Positions 3,184-63,145 of a DNA stretch of 64,000 nucleotides are shown here, one piece after another. The stretch's first letter is position 1, and each line of letters opens with the position of its first letter. The stretch is from Candidatus Nomurabacteria bacterium (GTDB lineage Bacteria > Patescibacteriota > Minisyncoccia > Phycocordibacterales > UBA918). The translations under genes and the position numbers were made by a program. The stretch is from assembly GCA_020632155.1 (NCBI GenBank), contig JACKGE010000001.1:314285-378284 (forward strand). The letters are read 5' to 3'. The notes beneath the pieces were generated by a model. It was not told the DNA's origin. It saw nothing but the letters and a program-made list of their open reading frames with translations, and did not search any database.

Positions 3184-4602
3184 ATGGCAGAGAAAAAAGT
3201 TGAACAAGAATCGCGACCTGACTCTAACGGGATGGAGAAGATCGTTTCGCTGTGTAAGCGCCGCGGTTTTGTCTTTCAGGGCAGCGAGATATATGGTGGA
3301 CTTGCTGGCATCTATGACTATGGACCAAACGGTGTTGAGCTTCTAAATAATCTTAAAAGATTATGGTGGAAAGCCAATGTCTACGATAAAGAAAATTACT
3401 ATGGTCTTGATTCAGGCATGTTCAAGCACCCAAAAGTTTGGGAAGCATCCGGACATACTTCAGGTTTTTCTGACCCATTGGCTGAATGTCGTGAATGTAA
3501 CACTCGCATCCGCGTTGATAAAGAGCTTGAGAAGGTTGGTGTAACAGCCGACGAAAAAATGTCTGAAACAGAGATTAATCAACTGTTTGATGCGCATCGT
3601 GAAGAGATAAAGTGTCCAAAGTGCGGACAGAAGAATTTTACTCCAGCGAGGGCTTTCAATTTACTCGTCAAATCAAACTTAGGAGACTTCACTTCAGAGG
3701 GCACGGAACCGGTTTATCTCCCTGGTGAAGCGTGTCAGGGCATTTATCTCAACTTCAAAAATGTTGTTGACTCCATGAACCCAAAAATTCCATTTGGCAT
3801 TGCACAGATAGGAAAGGCATTTCGTAATGAGATCTCACCTCGCAACTTTCTGTTTCGTACACGAGAGATGGAGCAGGCTGACACACAATATTTTGTGAAA
3901 CCAAATGAAAATAAAGAAGCCTACGAACTGATAAAACAAGACCGTTGGGATTGGTACCTTTCGATTGGTATTAAAGAAGAAAATTTGCGTTGGAAACAAC
4001 ATGAAAACTTGGTCTTTTATGCTAAGGACGCGTGGGATATTGAGTACAATTTCCCTGGAGGCTTTGATGAACTGGAAGGAATTCATGACCGCAGTGACTA
4101 CGATTTAACTCAGCATATGGAGTACTCGGGAACTGATGTCCGATACACTGACCCTGACAACGGTGAAAAATATATACCATGGATACTGGAGACATCGGTT
4201 GGACTTGGACGCATGTTCATGGCGGTTCTTTCAGATGCATATCACGAAGATGAGGTGGGTGGTAGTCAAAGAACAGTACTTAAGTTACATAAGGAGCTTG
4301 CACCATATCGTGTGGCAGTCTCACCACTCTTAAAGAACAAGCCGCAGCTAGTGGAAAAAGCGCGTGAGGTATTTGCCATGCTCAAAAAAGAGTTTGGCAA
4401 TGTGGCGTGGGATGATAATGGCAATGTCGGTAAGCGCTATCGCCGGCAAGATGAAATTGGCACCCCGCACTGCGTTACTATTGACTTTGATACTCTTGGC
4501 GAAGAAAATCCCGCTAACAAAGACACTGTCACCGTCCGCGATCGCGACACCGGTGAACAGGTTCGTGTCCCCGTAACCGATTTGATTGGTTACATACAAT
4601 AA
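3184..4602 (+). CDS. glyQS: Glycyl-tRNA synthetase, class II dimeric type
   Basis: N-terminus CKRRGFVFQGSEIYGGLAGIYDYGPNGVELLNNLKRLWW and full-length class II motifs. Confidence 0.9.
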   Translation: MAEKKVEQESRPDSNGMEKIVSLCKRRGFVFQGSEIYGGLAGIYDYGPNGVELLNNLKRLWWKANVYDKENYYGLDSGMFKHPKVWEASGHTSGFSDPLAECRECNTRIRVDKELEKVGVTADEKMSETEINQLFDAHREEIKCPKCGQKNFTPARAFNLLVKSNLGDFTSEGTEPVYLPGEACQGIYLNFKNVVDSMNPKIPFGIAQIGKAFRNEISPRNFLFRTREMEQADTQYFVKPNENKEAYELIKQDRWDWYLSIGIKEENLRWKQHENLVFYAKDAWDIEYNFPGGFDELEGIHDRSDYDLTQHMEYSGTDVRYTDPDNGEKYIPWILETSVGLGRMFMAVLSDAYHEDEVGGSQRTVLKLHKELAPYRVAVSPLLKNKPQLVEKAREVFAMLKKEFGNVAWDDNGNVGKRYRRQDEIGTPHCVTIDFDTLGEENPANKDTVTVRDRDTGEQVRVPVTDLIGYIQ

Positions 4603-4633
4603 AAACAACCCCCGCATCAATTTACGGAGGTTG

Positions 4634-5047
4634 CTAGGTCAGAAGGACCAGAAAGTAACCAAAGGCTAGAGGTATGCCAAAAGGAAGTCCTCGGCGTTGG
4701 TCTTTTTGGTAATACAGTACGGCGGCGGTTACTAATGTTGCTACCACACATCCGTTGATGAATAAAGCCATCTGTCCGCTGACAGGCCCTATTCCAAAAA
4801 GTAGGACTGCGGTAAGCTTCCCGTCACCGGCTCCCCACACTTGGAGATTGAAGAGCACTAGCCCCATCAATAACGTACTCAACCCAAGGGTAAGTGATCC
4901 CAAAAAATCAGGGTCACCCTCAAAGACCTTCTGTGCGCTAATGATGATAAGGAGCAGTAGGATGTTTTTATTGCTTATAATCCTACTCCTCCAATCAGAA
5001 ATTGCGACCCAGCAGAGGAGGGCCGCAGCAATCGAATCAAAGAACAT
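4634..5047 (-). CDS. Type IV prepilin peptidase, A24 family, CpaA/TadV-like (short)
   Basis: Polytopic membrane protein with a ...WGAGDGKL... aspartate motif resembling the CpaA/TadV GxGDxKL motif. Strong SD (GAGGAGGG) 7 nt upstream. Immediately downstream of an Flp pilin gene. Confidence 0.55.
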   Translation of the reverse strand: MFFDSIAAALLCWVAISDWRSRIISNKNILLLLIIISAQKVFEGDPDFLGSLTLGLSTLLMGLVLFNLQVWGAGDGKLTAVLLFGIGPVSGQMALFINGCVVATLVTAAVLYYQKDQRRGLPFGIPLAFGYFLVLLT

Positions 5048-5072
5048 CTGCTGACCCTCCTCGTGGCTTCGC

Positions 5073-5201
5073 TTACTGGCCGCTTGGCCCGAATGCGCTC
5101 ACAGCGCCGATGATCGCAACGGCAATAATCGCGGCAATGAGACCGTATTCGATGGCAGTTGCGCCAGATTCGCTTTTGATGAAGCGATTAATAAGTTTCA
5201 T
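5073..5201 (-). CDS. flp: Flp/Fap-family type IVb pilin, 42 aa (not in ORF track because under 60 aa)
   Basis: Reverse-strand translation MKLINRFIKSESGATAIEYGLIAAIIAVAIIGAVSAFGPSGQ* contains the canonical Flp motif G/ATAIEYGLIAA (prepilin cleavage after Gly). AAGGAG SD 9 nt upstream. Sits 25 nt upstream of the peptidase. Confidence 0.6.
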   Translation of the reverse strand: MKLINRFIKSESGATAIEYGLIAAIIAVAIIGAVSAFGPSGQ

Positions 5202-5328
5202 TCGTCGACTCCTTCTTCTGCTCGGCTCCGAATGGCCGAGAGTAATCTGATAAAAACATTGTTTAAATAAAGAGTCAAGTAAGTGACAAAATGTTTTTCT
5301 TGGTCAGCTGTGCTACATTAGAACCACT

Positions 5329-6771
5329 ATGTCTGAGCCAAAACCGCGTTATATAACCACCACCTTGCCCTATGTAAATGCTGACCCGCACGTTGGTTTT
5401 GCTCTGGAGGCAGTGCAAGCTGATGCCCTCGCACGTTACTGGCGGCTTATGGGCCACGAAGTCTTTTTCAACACTGGTACTGACGAGCATGGCCAGAAAA
5501 TTGCCCAGAAGGCTGACGAAGCAGGGAGGGATAGGCAAGAGTATGTAGATCACTATGCTGGGCAGTTTAATAAGCTCAAAGAAGCCCTCAACCTCTCTTA
5601 CGATCATTTTATTCGCACTACTGATGACGCCCACAAAGCAGCAGCGCAGGCTATCTGGCAGAAGTGTGCCGAGAACGGCGACATCTACAAAAAGAAATAC
5701 AAAGGCCTCTACTGTGTTGGCTGCGAGTTGTTTGTCCGCGAGAGCGACCTTGTTGATGGCAAGTGTCCGCACCACCCTAACCAAGAGCTGCAAGAGATCG
5801 AGGAAGAAAATTACTTCTTTGCACTTTCTAAGTACCAGTCGTACCTAGAGGAGTATCTCAGTGGCGATAGCGTTACGCCGGACTGGCAGCGAGCGTGGGC
5901 GCTAGAGTTTGTGAAAAAGGGTCTTGAGGACTTTAGTATCTCGCGCGAACGTGCTCGCCTCGATTGGGGTGTGCCGGTACCAAATGACGAGGATCAGGTC
6001 ATGTATGTGTGGTTTGATGCCCTTACTAACTACATCTCAACCCTCGGTTGGCCGGAGGATAGCGAGGGAACGTTTAAGAAGTTTTGGACTGACGGAGAGA
6101 CACTGCAGCTAGCCGGCAAAGACCAAGTACGTTTCCAGTCCATCATGTGGCAAGCAATGCTGAAAAGTGCCGGTGTGAAAGCCACTGACAAGGTCTTTTA
6201 CCATGGCTTTATCACGAGCGGTGGCCAGAAGATGAGCAAGAGCGTTGGTAACGTCATTTCACCGTACGAACTCGTGGAGCGTTATGGTACCGATGCGGCG
6301 CGGTACATTCTCCTGCGGCACGTGCATCCAACTGACGACTCGGACCTCACATGGGAAAAAATGGATGAGTGGTACACCGCCAACTTGGTTAATGGCCTTG
6401 GCAACCTCACCGCTCGTATCATGAAAATGGCTGAGACACACCTTGATAGTCCGATTGAAAAACCAGAGGTTGGTCAGTTCGATGAAGCGTATCTAAAAGC
6501 TCTTGATGAGTACGATTTCATGACTGCGTGTGATTTTGTCTGGAAGAAAGTAGGAGAGCTTGATGAGAAGATAACTGAGACCGAGCCATTCAAGTTGGTA
6601 AAAACTGATAAAGAAGCTGCGGTGAAAATAATCAAAGAGTTGGTTCACGATCTTTATATCGTTGGTCGCATGCTATTTCCACTGATGCCCAAGGCTAACG
6701 TAGCGATTAAAGAAGCCGTCCTCGCCAACAAAAAACCAGACAACCTCTTTAACCGTTTAGAAGATAAGTAG
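5329..6771 (+). CDS. metG: Methionyl-tRNA synthetase
   Basis: TTTLPYVNADPHVGFALEAVQADALARYWRLMGHEVFFNTGTDEHGQKI (HIGH-type motif) ...KMSKSVGN (KMSKS motif). Confidence 0.9.
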   Translation: MSEPKPRYITTTLPYVNADPHVGFALEAVQADALARYWRLMGHEVFFNTGTDEHGQKIAQKADEAGRDRQEYVDHYAGQFNKLKEALNLSYDHFIRTTDDAHKAAAQAIWQKCAENGDIYKKKYKGLYCVGCELFVRESDLVDGKCPHHPNQELQEIEEENYFFALSKYQSYLEEYLSGDSVTPDWQRAWALEFVKKGLEDFSISRERARLDWGVPVPNDEDQVMYVWFDALTNYISTLGWPEDSEGTFKKFWTDGETLQLAGKDQVRFQSIMWQAMLKSAGVKATDKVFYHGFITSGGQKMSKSVGNVISPYELVERYGTDAARYILLRHVHPTDDSDLTWEKMDEWYTANLVNGLGNLTARIMKMAETHLDSPIEKPEVGQFDEAYLKALDEYDFMTACDFVWKKVGELDEKITETEPFKLVKTDKEAAVKIIKELVHDLYIVGRMLFPLMPKANVAIKEAVLANKKPDNLFNRLEDK

Positions 6772-13037: not shown

Positions 13038-13424
13038 ATGACCATTCATGTACTACCGGTGCGGGCTGATACCGGCACCAACATCCACCTCAAACTTGTC
13101 GGTAGTTGCGGCAAACGTATAGTAGCTACTGCTAGCGTACACATTGTAACTACCGACTCCCATGTGTACGCGTATCTGCACGACGTGCTTGTGAAGGAGG
13201 AATACCGCGGCCGTGGGTATGGGCGGCAGCTTATGATGGGGGTGCTCGTTGCGCTCCAAGAGTACGCAGATGACACTTGCAAATCCATTAAGCTACAGTT
13301 CACCAGTAGCCCCACGCGGGTCGCTGCCAACAGCCTCTATCAGAGTCTGGGCTTTGAACTCGTTGCAACTGCCACTAGCGGCGGCACTAATCTCTACCAA
13401 CGTATCATCGAGTCAGCAATGTGA
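13038..13424 (+). CDS. GNAT-family N-acetyltransferase
   Basis: ...VLVKEEYRGRGYGRQLM...SLGFEL (acetyl-CoA-binding motif A). Confidence 0.65.
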   Translation: MTIHVLPVRADTGTNIHLKLVGSCGKRIVATASVHIVTTDSHVYAYLHDVLVKEEYRGRGYGRQLMMGVLVALQEYADDTCKSIKLQFTSSPTRVAANSLYQSLGFELVATATSGGTNLYQRIIESAM

Positions 13425-38228: not shown

Positions 38229-38464
38229 CGTCGGCTGGGGTGAAATGGTTAGGGCGACGGCTTGCCGTCGCCCTACACCAGAAACCTTGTGGTTTCTAGA
38301 GTTACTCACGCCTCAAGAAGTAGGCGAAGACAAGAGTGTCAATAAAAGGCACCAGTATGGAAATACACCAGCTGGTGCTATTTCTATACATGGCTGATTT
38401 TTTTAAGGCCAAGAAACCCCCGTCAGCCACAAGTGATACTAGGGTTTTTTGGTACAATGTCACT

Positions 38465-39841
38465 ATGAGAACCACAGAAGCCTGGGCTTTTAAGCGACAA
38501 CTTATCTACGGCACGTTTTTTACTACGCTGTTCATTTTGCTGGTAGTTTTTCTATATTTCCGCTATTTCTACAATCCAGCCACCTGTTTTGATGGGTCAC
38601 TAAATGGTGATGAGCTCGCAATCGACTGCGGCGGTAGTTGTGTACGTATTTGTCCGTTTGAAGTAAGCGATCCTGTTGTGAAGTGGTCACGTAGTTTTGA
38701 GATTCGTAGTGGTTTGTATAATGCGGTTGGGTATGTTGAGAACATGAACCGCGAGGCCTCAACCAAAGCGATTCCGTATACTTTTAAGCTTTACGATGCT
38801 GACGGACTTATAACAGAACGCAGCGGTACCACTGTCTTGCCGCCAGACAATGTATATCCTATTTTTGCTGGACGTATTGATACGGGCGGCCGCACACCAA
38901 CACGTACCTTCCTTGAGCTTGGTGAAGCTGAGCTGTGGCAACCATCCCCGCTCGGACGCGAGCAGTTCACGGTTGTTGATCGCTCACTATCGGGGGCTGA
39001 CAGTGAACCACGACTTGATGCGGTTATAGAGAATACGAGCCTCGAAGAAGCCCGCGAGGTCGAAGTGGTTGCCACCATATTTGATCAAAACGGAAATGCG
39101 CTCACTGCTTCGGAGACCTTTGTTGATAATTTTGCACCGCGTTCTAAAAAGCAGGTGGTCTTTACGTGGCCAGAGCCTATCGCTACTACCCTGCGTAGTT
39201 GTGAGGTGCCAACGGATGTGGTGATGGCGGTGGACCTCTCCGGTAGTATGAATAATGACGGCGGTGACCCACCAGAGCCAATTAGTAGTGTCATCAATGC
39301 TGCCAGTAGCTTTGTGTCGCGTCTTGGCGGGAAGGACCAAATCTCCATTGTCTCTTTTGCGAGTGATGCAGTACTTGAGCGACCGCTCGGGGGTGATACC
39401 GGTAGCGCTATTGAGACCATCAAGAACATGTCTATCTTGCCGGAGGAGGAAACTGGTAATACCAATACCGGCGAAGCTTTTGTGCGCGCACGGGAAGAAT
39501 TCACCACTAGTCGTCACAATAGCGATGCGCGTAAGGTGATGGTCATTCTAACGGACGGCCTCGCTACCGCACCGAGGGAAGAACCGGAGGTATACGCCCT
39601 TACGGAGGCCGCAACACTTAAGAATATGGATGTTGAAGTCTATGCTATTGGCCTTGGACAGCAGGTGAATATGGACTTCGTTCGCGCTATTGCTACTGAT
39701 CAAAGCTACGCCTTTCAAGCTCTTTCAAGCACTGACGTTGATGCAATTTACCAAAGTATCACAGCGGCTATTTGTGAGGACGGGCCGGCTGTTATCGAGA
39801 TTATTCCGAAATCTGACGCTAGTTTTGTGCCATTACAATAA
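38465..39841 (+). CDS. Membrane-anchored von Willebrand factor A (VWA) domain protein
   Basis: N-terminal TM (LIYGTFFTTLFILLVVFLYF). VWA MIDAS region ...VVMAVDLSGSMNN...ISIVSFASDAV...MVILTDGLA... Start trimmed to the Met before the TM. Confidence 0.65.
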   Translation: MRTTEAWAFKRQLIYGTFFTTLFILLVVFLYFRYFYNPATCFDGSLNGDELAIDCGGSCVRICPFEVSDPVVKWSRSFEIRSGLYNAVGYVENMNREASTKAIPYTFKLYDADGLITERSGTTVLPPDNVYPIFAGRIDTGGRTPTRTFLELGEAELWQPSPLGREQFTVVDRSLSGADSEPRLDAVIENTSLEEAREVEVVATIFDQNGNALTASETFVDNFAPRSKKQVVFTWPEPIATTLRSCEVPTDVVMAVDLSGSMNNDGGDPPEPISSVINAASSFVSRLGGKDQISIVSFASDAVLERPLGGDTGSAIETIKNMSILPEEETGNTNTGEAFVRAREEFTTSRHNSDARKVMVILTDGLATAPREEPEVYALTEAATLKNMDVEVYAIGLGQQVNMDFVRAIATDQSYAFQALSSTDVDAIYQSITAAICEDGPAVIEIIPKSDASFVPLQ

Positions 39842-50605: not shown

Positions 50606-51049
50606 ACTGGCCACTGTTCACGGGAGTGAAGAACGCGTTTTTAAAGCGCGTTTCGAGTTTGGGTAAGTTCCTACTCGCACTGTCGGAGGGAGCAGCGTTT
50701 TTCGACAATACTCATCTGCACACATCAGCCAACAATTTATTTTTGTCTGATGTGTGCTGGTGAGGGTCATGTGTTTCAAAAGATTAATTGGAGAAACAGA
50801 TGATTTGAATAGATCAAATCAATCGACCTTATGATTGATTTGAGTACCAAGTTGTAATCAATTTATTTTGGTTATGACGGTACGCATCAGCAAGACAATT
50901 GAAATTTGTTTTTTCTTTTGTCTTATCCTTTAGGAGGTTCATTGAAGAGCGCTAACAGAGTACAGCGCACCGGAATGATGCATCTGCATGATTTCGATAG
51001 TAGATGAACCCAGGTAAGAACTACTTTAAGTAGATCCAAACCTGTCTTA

Positions 51050-52503
<1,454 letters not shown>

Positions 52504-52631
52504 AATTGGACACGTCGTGGTTGCTCTGGTAACAGAGTGACAACTCGCGGCTAATTGGTCGGTCTTATGTGCCTCAATTGAGCATGTAAGAGGTAATGAT
52601 ACTTGAACCTTTAGCTAGTATTTGACTGTAG

Positions 52632-53784: not shown

Positions 53785-53858
53785 CCGGGCTTAGCTCAGT
53801 TGGCTAGAGCGTTCGACTGATACTCGAAAGGTCCAAGGTTCAAATCCTTGAGCCCGGA
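53785..53858 (+). tRNA. tRNA-Ile (anticodon GAT), stand-alone
   Basis: Acceptor CCGGGCT/AGCCCGG, D-arm GCTC-AGTTGGCTA-GAGC, anticodon stem TTCGA/TCGAA with loop CTGATAC, T-arm CAAGG-TTCAAAT-CCTTG, discriminator A. No encoded CCA. Confidence 0.8.
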
Positions 53859-54064
53859 CAAATTTCGAAAATTTCAGAAAAACTCTTGCGTTGCTCCAAG
53901 TGTTCGCAACTCACTCGAAAGGTCCAAGGTTGACCTAGAAATTAGGGAGAGTTTACTCGACCATAATTTCGAAAATACTCTTGTGGTGGACCTAGAAAAT
54001 AATGACCGAAGGGAATATATTTTCGAAAATACTCTTGTGGTGCAAATCCTTGAGCCCGGACAAA
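53859..54064 (+). repeat. tRNA-Ile 3'-fragment copies interleaved with ~54-nt tandem repeats (att-like remnant)
   Basis: Partial tRNA copy TTCGCAACTCACTCGAAAGGTCCAAGGTT (53903-53931). Exact copy of the tRNA 3' end CAAATCCTTGAGCCCGGACAAA (54043-54064). Direct repeats (A)ATTTCGAAAATACTCTTGTGGTG at 53965-53988 and 54019-54042. Confidence 0.7.
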
Positions 54065-56887: not shown

Positions 56888-57370
56888 ATGAAATTTTTGT
56901 ATGGAGCGACCCGTTGGGTCATTCTTGTTGGGCCAGTTGCGTTGAAGATAGCGCGTTTCCGCCCGTACCGCTTAGTTGCAAGACTTTTTGTACATGCTCG
57001 TAATGGCGAAGTAAGGATGCGACTCGACAAATTCGACAGTCGTTCCAAGCTCGTCGCCGTCTGCAGGTACATTGGGGCAGGTGTGTCGGCCAACCGAGCT
57101 GAATACCATTTGTACAGGGAAGATGAGCGGCTCCGTCTGATACCGGTGAAAAGTATCTGGTTCTGGGGTCTTGTTCTTGTTCAGTCGCGGGGCGATGCAA
57201 TTCCTCACGACTGTGCCGAAGAGGCCACAAGTCATCCTATGTGGTCAGCGATGCTGGAAGAGGCTGGTTCTGCAAATAAAGCGCTAAAGCAATTTTGTCT
57301 CTTCAACGGACGACCACATCTCGCTGACTATGGCAGATGGGACCTAGAAGGAGTAATCAAAACTGTTTGA
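56888..57370 (+). CDS. Hypothetical basic R/W-rich protein with a strong GGGAGGG SD (atypical for this genome)
   Basis: 160-aa ORF, ~52% GC, cagGGAGGGtccaATG. Confidence 0.35.
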   Translation: MKFLYGATRWVILVGPVALKIARFRPYRLVARLFVHARNGEVRMRLDKFDSRSKLVAVCRYIGAGVSANRAEYHLYREDERLRLIPVKSIWFWGLVLVQSRGDAIPHDCAEEATSHPMWSAMLEEAGSANKALKQFCLFNGRPHLADYGRWDLEGVIKTV

Positions 57371-59790: not shown

Positions 59791-61752
59791 ATGACCATGT
59801 CATACGATCCGGAGCGAATCACATTCTTTGCGCAAACAGACGCGCGCGGTAAGAATTTGCCCTTTGGTATCAAGGCCAAGGATCGTTCCCGCCATGTCTA
59901 CGTCATTGGTAAGACGGGTATGGGTAAATCGACCTTGCTCGAAAACATGGCTATTCAAGATATTCGCAATGGCGAGGGCGTTGCCTTTATCGACCCCCAT
60001 GGTCAGACTGCGGAAACCCTTCTCAATTACGTGCCGGAAGAACGCATCAAAGATGTGCTCTACTTTGCTCCGTTTGATATGGAGCACCCGGTCTCATTCA
60101 ATGTCATGGAAGACGTTGGTCCTGATAAGCGCCACTTGGTCGTCTCTGGCCTCATGTCGGTATTTGAGAAGATCTGGGTGGACGCGTGGAGCGCCCGTAT
60201 GGCGTACATTCTCCAGAACACACTGATGGCGCTCCTTGAGTATCCAGATTCGACCCTTCTTGGAGTGAACCGCATGCTATCGGACAAAAACTACCGCAAG
60301 AAGGTCGTTGATAATATTCAGGACCCGTCGGTAAAGTCATTCTGGGTAGACGAATTTGCCAAGTACAACGAACGGTACATGCAGGAAGCGGGAGACGCCA
60401 TCAAGAACAAGATCGGCCAGTTTACCGCCAACCCCCTCATCCGCAATATCATTGGTCAGCCAAAATCGAGTTTTGATATTCGCAAGATCATGGACGAGAA
60501 GAAGATCCTCATCATGAACCTCTCCAAAGGTCTCGTGGGTGAAACTAATGCCAACCTGCTTGGCTCGATGCTTACGACCCGCATTTATCTTGCAGCCATG
60601 AGCCGCGCTGATATGCCATATCAGCAGCTGCAGCAAATGCCGAATTTCTACTTTTATGTGGACGAGTTCCAGTCGTTTGCCAATGCTACCTTTGCGGACA
60701 TTCTTTCCGAGGCACGAAAGTACAAACTCAATCTCACCATTGCCCACCAGTATATCGAGCAGATGGAAGAAGAAGTCAAGAACGCGGTCTTTGGTAACGT
60801 CGGTACGATTATCTCATTTCGAGTCGGTCCGTTTGATGCTGAGGTGCTCGAGACCATCTTTGCACCGAAATTCACCGCTGTTGATATTGTTAACCTCGGT
60901 TTTGCACAAGTTTATATGACGCTCATGATCGACGGCATTGGCTCAGCGCCATTTTCTGCCACCACTATACCGCCACTGCAGCACCACGGTTTGTCGTACA
61001 AAGATGTTGTGGTTGATTCGAGTCGCAAACAATTTGCCCATGGTCGCAAAGAGGTAGAAGAGGCCATTTTCGGTTGGCACGAGATTGGTGAGGGTGACGA
61101 TAAAAATAAAAAGATCGCAGACTCTAAACGACTATCCGGTGATACTAAGCAGCGAACAGAACGGCCAAAGGAAGATAGGGGGAAGAATAGAGACAGAGAC
61201 AGAGACACACATAAAGACCGTTCACAGTCACGTAGTGGTGTGAACGATGCTAAAAGTAGTAGATCAGAACGACCACATACCAATAGTGAGCGACCAACAA
61301 AGCGTCCAGAGCGCGATAGCGAGAAGAAGTCACAACCTACGACCCCAAACAAAGATCTTACTGAGCTTCGTTCTATTCTCGCCACCATAGCCAAGCCGCA
61401 GAACGCTAATGCAGCCGAAAAGTCCAGTGATTCCCGTGGTCCAAGTGCTTCGAAAGAAAAGTCACCCGCTCAAAGCGCAGCTGCGGCGGACAACAAACAA
61501 GACCTACGAAGTGTCCTTGCTGGTGTGATAGGTAGTGCAACTGGAGAAAAACCCCAATCCATCGAAGAAAAAAAAGAGTCGCCGTCATCAAACCAAGCAC
61601 CAAAACCAGGCAACGCTGCAGTGGCGCAGTCTGTACCTATTGATACACAACCAAAACAATCATCAGCGCCGGAGAATACTTCCGAACTAGACCCCAAACA
61701 ACTCGAACGGATGATGCGTGTGACTACTAGCGATAGATCACCCCTTAAATAA
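59791..61752 (+). CDS. TrwB/TraD/VirD4-like coupling-protein P-loop ATPase (soluble, no N-terminal TM) with a ~230-aa disordered basic/Ser-rich C-terminal tail
   Basis: ...HVYVIGKTGMGKSTLLENMAIQDIRNGEGVAFIDPHGQ... parallels the TrwB/TraD Walker A and following Dxx(N/H)G block. Walker B-like ...FYFYVDEFQSF... The C-terminal third is K/R/D/S-rich low complexity. Confidence 0.55.
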   Translation: MTMSYDPERITFFAQTDARGKNLPFGIKAKDRSRHVYVIGKTGMGKSTLLENMAIQDIRNGEGVAFIDPHGQTAETLLNYVPEERIKDVLYFAPFDMEHPVSFNVMEDVGPDKRHLVVSGLMSVFEKIWVDAWSARMAYILQNTLMALLEYPDSTLLGVNRMLSDKNYRKKVVDNIQDPSVKSFWVDEFAKYNERYMQEAGDAIKNKIGQFTANPLIRNIIGQPKSSFDIRKIMDEKKILIMNLSKGLVGETNANLLGSMLTTRIYLAAMSRADMPYQQLQQMPNFYFYVDEFQSFANATFADILSEARKYKLNLTIAHQYIEQMEEEVKNAVFGNVGTIISFRVGPFDAEVLETIFAPKFTAVDIVNLGFAQVYMTLMIDGIGSAPFSATTIPPLQHHGLSYKDVVVDSSRKQFAHGRKEVEEAIFGWHEIGEGDDKNKKIADSKRLSGDTKQRTERPKEDRGKNRDRDRDTHKDRSQSRSGVNDAKSSRSERPHTNSERPTKRPERDSEKKSQPTTPNKDLTELRSILATIAKPQNANAAEKSSDSRGPSASKEKSPAQSAAAADNKQDLRSVLAGVIGSATGEKPQSIEEKKESPSSNQAPKPGNAAVAQSVPIDTQPKQSSAPENTSELDPKQLERMMRVTTSDRSPLK

Positions 61753-61759
61753 GCTAATC

Positions 61760-63145
61760 ATGTGGCGAAACTGGGCATTAAACACAGTGTTCGTGTTTTG
61801 TGCCGCCCCAGTAACTGCGCAGGCAGCAGTCATCATCAACGAGATCGCCTGGATGGGAACAGAAAGTTCAGCGAATGATGAGTGGATCGAGCTCTATAAC
61901 ACTGGTCCTACTGAGGTAGTACTTGATGGATGGGAAGTGTCTGATGGTATGAACCTCTCGATTGCTCTCAGTGGCACACTTTCGGCTGGTAGCCATGCCG
62001 TTCTTGAGCGAACTGATGACGATTCTGCTCACGGTGCTGCCTTTCTCATCTATACGGGGGCGCTCCCAAACACTGGTGCCACCATGCGTCTATATCGCGC
62101 TGACGGTTCAATAGAGGATCAAGTTGCAGGCGGTGAGAATTGGGAACTCATCGGTGGTGATAACGTCACCAAGGAGACGGCGCAGTATACGAGTAGTGGC
62201 TGGATAACCGCTGCTGCCACCCCCGGCCGTGAAAATGCTAGCACCGGAAGTACTGAGACTACTACAGAGACAAGTCAAGGAACAAAGACAACCACAACAT
62301 CGTCTACTGGTTCGGCAACTACCAAAGCAGTAAGTGCCGCTGACGAGCTGTCACATGAACTAACGCTCACGTTCTTGGTGCCGACTGTGGCCTACGTCGG
62401 ACAACCGGTCACTTTTACTGCTGAGGCGACTGGCCTTGGCGCCGGAGTGCTGAGTTCACTTCGCTACTCGTGGAATTTTGGTGATCTTGGTACCGCCAAA
62501 GGTGAAGAGGTGTCACATACGTATCGGTACCCTGGTAAATATATTATTAGTGCCCGTGGTGCGTACGGAGAATATGAAGCTATCAAAGAGGCAACCGTCA
62601 CTATTTTGCCAGTTGATCTCTCCATTACCCATTCGCCAACCGGTGACCTCCAGCTACATAACGATGCTAAATACACCATCGATCTCTCGCGCTTCACAGT
62701 TGCGGGTATTAAGTTGCCGGACCGGACCAAACTACTGGCGGGCAGTACGCTCACGATACCAAAACGTGACTTAGCGCCAAGTGCGCAGCTGCTCACCACG
62801 GTCTATGACAGTTCAGGCACGCTTGCCCTGATGTCAGGAGGTGAGACTACAGCGCAACCACAGAGTGAACCAACTGCTATAGCACCCTCAGTTGCGTTTG
62901 TGACACCTACTCCAGAACCGTACGTGGCGGCATCTGAGACTACTGATGGTGTCGATACACAATTTGTGTTTGCTGCTGAGGTATCAACCACCACACCTAC
63001 GGCTGCTGAAGTTAATTTTGGAGCGACTGACCAGCAGGCAGCCATAGCTGCAGCTCCCGCAACGCCTACATCGTCTCGCTGGCCGTACCTTGGCTTGGTT
63101 GGCGTTCTATTGGTAGGAAGTTTTGGTCTCTTGGTGCGGCAGTAA
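61760..63145 (+). CDS. Secreted Lamin-tail-domain (LTD) protein with a Thr-rich linker, PKD-like domain and C-terminal TM anchor
   Basis: Signal peptide, then ...AVIINEIAWMGTESSANDEWIELYNTG... (LTD hallmark), ...YSWNFGDLGTAKGEEVSHTYRYPGKYII... (PKD), and C-terminal WPYLGLVGVLLVGSFGLLVRQ. Confidence 0.6.
   Translation: MWRNWALNTVFVFCAAPVTAQAAVIINEIAWMGTESSANDEWIELYNTGPTEVVLDGWEVSDGMNLSIALSGTLSAGSHAVLERTDDDSAHGAAFLIYTGALPNTGATMRLYRADGSIEDQVAGGENWELIGGDNVTKETAQYTSSGWITAAATPGRENASTGSTETTTETSQGTKTTTTSSTGSATTKAVSAADELSHELTLTFLVPTVAYVGQPVTFTAEATGLGAGVLSSLRYSWNFGDLGTAKGEEVSHTYRYPGKYIISARGAYGEYEAIKEATVTILPVDLSITHSPTGDLQLHNDAKYTIDLSRFTVAGIKLPDRTKLLAGSTLTIPKRDLAPSAQLLTTVYDSSGTLALMSGGETTAQPQSEPTAIAPSVAFVTPTPEPYVAASETTDGVDTQFVFAAEVSTTTPTAAEVNFGATDQQAAIAAAPATPTSSRWPYLGLVGVLLVGSFGLLVRQ

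Follow-up and report, generated by a model that had tools for sequence, protein, structure and literature searches.

Does a two-gene locus on the minus strand of a Candidatus Nomurabacteria contig encode the core of a working pilus, or is it a fragment of one that was captured from another bacterium? The locus lies in a 64-kb stretch of DNA (hereafter the window) and consists of a gene for a 42-residue prepilin of the Flp family followed by a gene for a short prepilin peptidase of the A24 family. An earlier, sequence-only reading of the window had called the two genes a Tad/Flp pilus core. This label was not borne out: the pair corresponds only to the first two genes of an operon of nine or more genes, and the pilin lacks its C-terminal third. 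We rather propose, with a probability of about one half, that the segment 4603–5308 was acquired laterally, as a stranded piece of a tad/cpa (type IVc pilus) operon of the proteobacterial type, and is not a working pilus core. The foreign origin itself is apparent from synteny, from the absence of any relative in the candidate phyla radiation (CPR) and from the presence of Shine-Dalgarno (SD) motifs in a genome devoid of the anti-SD.

Foreign origin of the pair in the glyS-metG slot

The host is a Parcubacteria-type (Kaiserbacteria/Nomurabacteria-like) CPR bacterium. Database copies of the proteins bear the names Candidatus Kaiserbacteria or Nomurabacteria, and the window displays hallmarks of these organisms, namely insertions in the 23S rRNA, an unlinked 16S rRNA, a T4SS-pilin-like gene and a VirD4-like ATPase. 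The pair stands between the genes for glycine-tRNA ligase (glyS) and methionine-tRNA ligase (metG). A scan of the GTDB species representatives with GlyRS allowed us to fetch 80 Patescibacteria loci (69–86% identity), about 50 of which keep the order RecO-DUF11-GlyRS-MetRS. No Flp or A24 match was found in the relatives' loci, either by tblastn or by profile hmmsearch of their six-frame translations (1.27 Mb). Since the pair is missing from the approximately 50 syntenic relatives, we conclude that it represents a lineage-specific insertion of about 0.6–0.7 kb in a variable slot. In several relatives, the gap between glyS and metG ranges from 12 nt (L010) through 36 nt (L018, L023) and 52 nt (L016, L019) to 85 nt (L022). 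Elsewhere the slot holds unrelated sequence, namely a 55-aa glycine-zipper-like membrane open reading frame (ORF; L014, L015) or an ORF of about 158 aa (L009, L017) and, in deeper relatives (L028–L049), a multi-pass membrane protein of about 350 aa.

An extended −10-like motif, TGnTAnnnT, is common to L012, L014, L015, L020, L022 and L024, in which it lies 10–15 nt before the metG ATG; this spacing indicates that leaders in the clade are very short and that initiation does not depend on an SD. The motif is retained in the window at 5309–5319, indicating that host sequence resumes there, and it is because of this retained, native promoter-like element that we place the right boundary of the insert within 5202–5308. 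That same interval contains a GC-rich hairpin (CTCGGC...GCCGAG) beside the SD motif of the pilin gene, and no consensus sigma-70 promoter was found upstream of this gene on the minus strand. At the other end, the hairpin spanning 4604–4635 has 13 pairs, of which 6 are GC, and is followed by TTTTTATTGTAT; an A-run/hairpin/T-run terminator is also found 3′ of glyS in the relatives, and the hairpin of the window may act as a terminator. When the insert was compared by blastn with the relatives' loci, only chance-level matches were obtained, and neither the exact junctions nor target-site repeats were definable.

The second line of evidence came from the translation initiation signals. An SD core of at least 6 nt was present in 2 of the 61 ORFs of the window, those of the pilin and of the peptidase (p about 5e-4, own calculation), in keeping with the observation made in the sequence-only reading that the pair carries strong SDs, unlike its neighbours. 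With a canonical anti-SD, the predicted duplex energies are −8.3 kcal/mol for the AAGGAG of the pilin gene and −12.3 kcal/mol for the GAGGAGGG of the peptidase gene; the native ATG-start ORFs (n = 35) average −1.9 kcal/mol, and their leaders 69% A+T. The 16S rRNA of the host ends in ...GGAUUAAUUCCAAU, as compared to ...GGAUCACCUCCUUu in bacteria (Rfam alignment, with maximal posterior probability), and no CCTCC was found in the 60 nt past this end. The CCUCC anti-SD is therefore absent from the 16S tail of the host, with which the two motifs form only weak duplexes (−5.3 kcal/mol for the pilin SD and −3.8 kcal/mol for the peptidase SD). A subgroup of Parcubacteria without anti-SD has been described (PMC9297842). 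Because the host 16S has no anti-SD and the native genes have no SD, the motifs of the pair are most plausibly relics left by a donor that used SDs, and so evidence of a foreign and fairly recent origin rather than of efficient translation in the host.

SD-like sequences also precede some other ORFs of the window. A high-GC island of about 1 kb at 37173–38228 (GC 0.58–0.64, compared to 0.48 for the window; GC at third codon positions 0.83) contains an ORF of 300–350 aa without Pfam match, whose likely true start is the ATG at 37323 and which is preceded by AAAGGGAGAGA; this ORF is a candidate for a second foreign gene with a fossil SD. Possible imports are also a 160-aa ORF without Pfam match at 56888–57370 (GGGAGGG, −11.6 kcal/mol) and a GNAT acetyltransferase at 13038–13424 (AGGAG, −6.8 kcal/mol).

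We considered the possibility that mis-assembly or mis-binning had placed a proteobacterial gene pair in CPR DNA, as both genes have their nearest relatives in Proteobacteria and the SD motifs are foreign to the host. Yet, seven contigs assembled independently from different samples (ENA, Logan) agreed at 100% identity in the pair and in its junctions with glyS and metG, conserved CPR genes lie within a few tens of nucleotides of either end of the insert, and the GC and dinucleotide composition of the insert matches that of the host. Such an artefact is therefore hardly conceivable. As the seven contigs are identical, they represent a single known clonal population and offer no population variation for a test of selection. 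The suggestion in the sequence-only reading that the pair might be laterally acquired is thus well supported by the approximately 50 syntenic relatives without the pair, by the SD motifs in a host without anti-SD and by the database searches described in the next section.

The pilin and the peptidase

The coordinates, minus-strand orientation, 42-aa translation, 25-nt gap and GDGK motif initially given for the two genes all proved correct. The first of them translates to MKLINRFIKSESGATAIEYGLIAAIIAVAIIGAVSAFGPSGQ. It had been described as unannotated, which holds only for the ORF track used at the time: public gene callers do call this ORF, and the NCBI record names it 'Flp family type IVb pilin [Candidatus Nomurabacteria bacterium]'. 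The searches with the Flp_Fap and Peptidase_A24 profiles that had been proposed as a check both gave scores above the gathering cut-offs, with 54.8 bits (E 8.3e-15; cut-off 32.2) for the pilin against PF04964 and 44.2 bits (cut-off 26.5) for the peptidase against PF01478. An NCBIfam search gave no match with the pilin and only noise with the peptidase.

The pilin has 7010 homologs at E ≤ 1e-3, which belong to the Flp family. The best ones are 74–86% identical to it across the aligned part, and those with a name are mostly from Alphaproteobacteria (Caulobacter, Brevundimonas, Notoacmeibacter, Rhizomicrobium, Henriciella, Hyphococcus). The processing motif reads MKLINRFIKSESG|ATAIEYGL, with G13, E18 and Y19 in invariant columns of the alignment, and A14 is matched with the first residue of the mature Tad pilins 8U1K (Caulobacter) and 8U2B/8UCR, which supports the predicted site G|ATAIEYGL. 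The leader, the Gly at position −1 and the ATAIEY motif are all canonical and the hydrophobic core helix is retained. In a motif scan of the window, this ORF was the only one with a class-III-signal-like N-terminus.

The other end of the protein is atypical. The Flp_Fap match covers only positions 1–32 of the 46 of the profile, and the ORF ends four residues beyond the invariant Gly38. All 15 aligned homologs extend further by 12–25 C-terminal residues, which include a near-invariant Phe, and the best 120 matches are all 50–66 aa long, the pilin of the window being the shortest Flp found among thousands of homologs. The mature form would comprise 29 residues, as compared to 45 in the solved Tad pilins. 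A full-length mature domain is made up of the core helix and a C-terminal amphipathic surface segment, and the pilin falls short of this. In the Tad pilus of Caulobacter, the C-terminal end of the 45-residue pilin makes up the exposed surface, and E5 and Y6 form a core hydrogen-bond network that is required for assembly (PMC11067988). Both of these residues are present in the mature pilin encoded here, and it is the outer part that is missing. The pilin and peptidase genes are only 25 nt apart, with a well-formed SD in this spacer, so that nothing remains of a C-terminal coding segment. Judging from its sequence, the pilin is truncated and lacks the surface-forming C-terminal third. The qualification 'textbook' used in the sequence-only reading therefore goes too far.

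The peptidase, in contrast to the pilin, is complete. This 137-aa polytopic membrane protein matches positions 2–101 of the 104 of the Peptidase_A24 profile and contains the motif GAGDGKL at residues 72–78. The alignment shows D18 and GAGD75GKL to be invariant and R22, N26, G62, G72 and P122 to be conserved as well. It aligns from end to end with relatives of 140–150 aa, being a short form without the N-terminal methyltransferase/zinc-binding region of PilD, and it has a polytopic membrane fold of the FlaK/presenilin type. FlaK (PDB 3S0X), the archaeal preflagellin peptidase of the GxGD aspartyl type (A24B), is 18% identical to it, but has an extra soluble domain and processes archaellins, not Flp pilins.

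A word-indexed homolog search with the peptidase retrieved only the protein itself. With an exhaustive phmmer search of 1.84 billion (1.84e9) representative proteins, the best relative beyond its own cluster showed 35% identity (E 7e-10), and 82 matches, mostly of about 140–160 aa, were obtained at E < 1e-3. Those with a name are gammaproteobacterial prepilin peptidases of the TadV/CpaA type (Pasteurellaceae, Vibrio, Enterovibrio, Pantoea, Dongshaea). The closest ones, TadV of the Pasteurellaceae Aggregatibacter and Actinobacillus and TadV/CpaA of Vibrio and Pantoea, are proteins of about 140–150 aa with two catalytic Asp, a GxGDxKL motif and no methyltransferase domain. They share 27–35% identity with the peptidase of the window and, unlike it, are encoded inside complete tad loci of diderm Proteobacteria (flp-1-flp-2-tadV-rcpCAB-tadZABCDEFG in Aggregatibacter/Actinobacillus). 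No CPR relative of the pair was found among the 1.84 billion representatives, and tblastn searches of plasmids and phages with the peptidase gave no match and thus identified no vector. By sequence, the peptidase is a complete and apparently catalytically competent short-form A24 enzyme of the TadV/CpaA kind and an orphan within that kind. The features of the locus are collected in Table 1.

Table 1. Coordinates of the pilin-peptidase locus, its flanks and the 16S rRNA (window numbering)
Feature	Position	Strand	Remarks
Flp-family prepilin gene, 42 aa	5073..5201	(-)	Pfam Flp_Fap and alignments
Pilin leader MKLINRFIKSESG	5163-5201	(-)	Part of the Flp-family prepilin gene
Predicted mature pilin, 29 aa, ATAIEYGLIAAIIAVAIIGAVSAFGPSGQ	5076-5162	(-)	Pilin stop codon at 5073-5075
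Short TadV/CpaA-type A24 prepilin peptidase gene, 137 aa	4634..5047	(-)	
Peptidase catalytic D18, codon	4994-4996	(-)	
Peptidase GAGDGKL	4814-4834	(-)	D75 at 4823-4825
SD-like motif AAGGAG	5209..5214	(-)	7 nt before the Flp ATG
SD-like motif GAGGAGGG	5055..5062	(-)	7 nt before the peptidase ATG, within the intergenic spacer
Pilin-peptidase spacer, 25 nt	5048-5072	(-)	Flp stop to peptidase ATG
Terminator-like hairpin and T-run	4604..4635	(-)	Overlaps the peptidase stop codon; abuts the glyS stop codon at 4602
Flp upstream region (5′ untranslated region, presumed promoter)	5202..5308	(-)	Right insert boundary somewhere inside
Native metG upstream element TGTGCTACATT, extended −10-like, with short leader	5309..5328	(+)	Conserved in relatives
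Left flank: glycine-tRNA ligase (glyQS type), conserved host gene	3184..4602	(+)	NCBIfam NF003211, 568 bits
Right flank: methionine-tRNA ligase, conserved host gene	5329..6771	(+)	Pfam tRNA-synt_1g, E 1e-101
16S rRNA	51047..52506	(+)	3′ tail GGAUUAAUUCCAAU in place of GGAUCACCUCCUUu, 3′ end at 52490-52506

Absence of Tad machinery from the window and possible fate of the pair

The pair has the same order and orientation as pilA-cpaA of Caulobacter crescentus and its equivalents in the alphaproteobacterial cpa loci, in which a Flp-type pilin gene and an A24 peptidase gene are the first two of pilA-cpaA-F. Caulobacter PilA has the same cleavage site and an almost identical mature N-terminus (ATAIEYGLI...). 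However, the mature pilin comprises 45 residues in these loci compared to 29 here, where the exposed C-terminal segment is absent, alphaproteobacterial CpaA comprises 171–173 aa compared to 137, and the spacer between the two genes about 110–150 nt compared to 25. Furthermore, cpaB-F and tadB/C are all absent downstream of the pair, and the host is a CPR bacterium.

We examined in particular the surroundings of P0003 and P0007, two of the homologs closest to the pilin. These loci have the canonical cpa/tad arrangement and encode in succession Flp, A24 (171–173 aa), RcpC, a secretin, CpaD, CpaE/TadZ, CpaF (T2SSE), TadB and TadC and, on the opposite strand upstream of flp, two TadE and a pilus-N protein. 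The T2SSE/T2SSF genes of the homologs' loci are within 5–8 kb of flp. Similarity between the peptidase of the window and the CpaA proteins of these loci is confined to short stretches (12/27 and 22/70 identities). In the window, a Pfam scan of every ORF of at least 200 aa and nearly every ORF of at least 100 aa gave no match to T2SSE (TadA/CpaF), T2SSF (TadB/TadC), secretin, TadE/F, TadZ (AAA_31/CpaE-type) or PilM/N/O. No Tad ATPase, platform protein, TadZ, pseudopilin or secretin is thus encoded within 4.6 kb on one side of the pair and 59 kb on the other, in line with the absence of tadZ, cpaF and tadBC from the window reported in the sequence-only reading. A protein with a VWA domain encoded at 38336–39841 and its neighbour were considered as TadG-like candidates and rejected, as they had no TadE/Tad N-terminal motif and gave VWA matches only. 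Because the pair matches genes 1 and 2 of a cpa/tad operon of nine or more genes, the rest of which is missing, we take it for an operon fragment.

In the scenario that we favour, segment 4603–5308 would derive from a tad/cpa operon, of which only the first two genes landed in the variable glyS-metG slot after having been captured from a neighbouring or host bacterium, for instance by DNA uptake. If the pair were expressed, the peptidase, acting in the membrane, would be predicted to remove the leader of 13 residues by cleavage after Gly13 and to leave a hydrophobic helix of 29 residues that stays membrane-embedded. Most likely, this helix would not be polymerised into a Tad pilus, since no cognate TadA/B/C motor comes with the insert and the outer part of the pilin is missing. 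The pair would then be a recently captured operon fragment that has not yet decayed.

Several points weigh against this interpretation. Both ORFs are intact, and the peptidase keeps 12 of 12 family-conserved positions and folds confidently, as would be the case if the pair were still in use no less than if it had arrived recently. Useless DNA tends to be lost from the streamlined genomes of CPR bacteria. The composition of the insert is neutral (GC 0.495, compared to 0.477 for the window; dinucleotide signature in the 50th percentile), the only compositional flag being a mildly atypical codon usage of the peptidase gene (z = −2.1). The donor can be specified only as 'a Proteobacteria-type tad locus', since the affinities of the pilin are with Alphaproteobacteria and those of the peptidase, which are weak (about 35% identity at best), with Gammaproteobacteria. 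The short pilin could also be the natural form of the donor rather than a truncation. Finally, the pair would be functional if Tad or other type IV filament machinery were encoded elsewhere in the genome, which measures at least 487 kb.

This last point leads to the possibility that the pair participates in a functional Tad (type IVc) pilus together with tadZ, tadA, tadB, tadC and pseudopilins encoded elsewhere. In some bacteria, tadV is indeed unlinked from the tad locus, and the same pilin is found on an NCBI contig of 486,692 bp, so that the window, at 64 kb, covers only a part of a genome with a minimum size of 487 kb. The intactness of both genes, the conservation of the catalytic residues and the presence of the assembly-critical E5 and Y6 (PMC11067988) are in agreement with such a function. 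Yet, the insert of about 0.7 kb lies in a slot that is empty in the relatives, and machinery acquired with the pair should lie beside it, as is the case in the operons of the homologs. The pilin is without the segment that forms the pilus surface, and the surveys of Patescibacteria report PilBCDT of the type IVa pilus (T4aP) type, not Tad (PMC10469934, PMC11623550). We found no paper that ties Flp/Tad pili or genes to CPR bacteria, in a literature coverage that was incomplete. Taken together, a working Tad pilus appears unlikely.

The usual filament system of the phylum is the type IVa-like pilus (PilB/C/D/M/N/O/T), as in Nanosynbacter lyticus TM7x, which belongs to the same type IV filament superfamily (PMC11623550, PMC10469934). 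Its lollipop-shaped pilins have globular domains and PilD as their processing enzyme, whereas the pair is Tad-type and foreign, and none of that system is encoded in the window. Could the processed mini-Flp nevertheless be polymerised, or incorporated as a minor subunit, by a resident PilB/PilC? The sequence-only reading had offered use with another type IV filament system as its alternative. A TadV-type peptidase would in this case have been acquired with the pilin since PilD-type peptidases do not process Flp leaders, and the two genes have indeed been retained together. Most Patescibacteria encode PilBCDT (PMC10469934), their type IV pili serve for attachment to the host (PMC11623550), and the N-terminal helix of Flp with its Glu5 resembles the α1-N of all type IV pilins. 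Against this stand the absence of T4aP genes from the window, the hydrophobic surface that a 29-residue helix without outer segment would expose, and the SD-based, GC-rich leaders of the pair, which differ from the native initiation contexts. Furthermore, we know of no Flp pilin that is assembled by a T4aP machine. Hijacking of the resident machinery is accordingly quite improbable.

A further possibility is that the cleaved 29-aa helix has been repurposed as a small peptide that is membrane-active, has a signalling role, or mimics or interferes with the Tad pilus of the host bacterium, the peptidase being its maturation enzyme. CPR bacteria live as episymbionts and take up DNA of their hosts, and the core of the pilin is 74–86% identical to mostly alphaproteobacterial Flp pilins. 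In addition, the loss of the outer segment with preservation of the leader, the cleavage site and the peptidase is not what random decay predicts. Such a role is, however, purely inferential and, to our knowledge, without precedent for an Flp peptide, and the restriction of the pair to one clonal population provides no conservation signal. We regard it as very improbable. The broader idea of a maintained minimal module, in which a host-derived 29-aa mini-Flp and its own TadV-type peptidase would either be served by type IVa-like machinery for polymerisation or contact or mimic the Tad pili of a proteobacterial host, seems to us a distinctly unlikely one. If true, the nearest relatives of the module would point to the host of the episymbiont.

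Other features of the window and significance of the pair

The 23S rRNA (32291–35961) measures 3671 nt, compared to 2925 nt for the model, due to about 750 nt of insertions, and contains small ORFs at 33894–34485 and 35402–35749. It is followed by the 5S rRNA (36054–36164) and, 15 kb downstream, by the unlinked 16S rRNA and then a tRNA-Ile(GAT) at 53785–53859. A block of low GC (0.35–0.41) and atypical codon usage at 25681–28027 comprises an IS200-like Y1 transposase (26138–26827), a small ORF for an SLT-domain lytic transglycosylase (26857–27219) and ORFs without matches, and may be a mobile element. A T4SS_pilin-like ORF (PF18895; 52969–53499, minus strand), a VirD4/TraG/HerA-like ATPase (59791–61752, plus strand) and a surface protein with Lamin-tail and PKD domains (61760–63145, plus strand) are part of a type IV secretion/conjugation-like apparatus of the CPR type, which is unrelated to the Flp pair.

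Both the pilin and the peptidase belong to known families. What is unusual is their occurrence in a CPR host, as an orphan pair, with the shortest Flp and with fossil SDs in a genome that has no anti-SD. The pair represents a clean and well-bounded case of gene capture by an ultrasmall CPR bacterium, and SD motifs could offer a simple means of recognising recent imports in Parcubacteria that lack the anti-SD. If the pair is expressed and used, it would provide the smallest known type IV pilin (29 aa) and a new route of surface interaction between CPR bacteria and their hosts. If it is a stranded fragment, which we hold more likely, it warns against inferring the presence of 'Tad pili' in metagenome-assembled genomes from Flp and A24 annotations alone.

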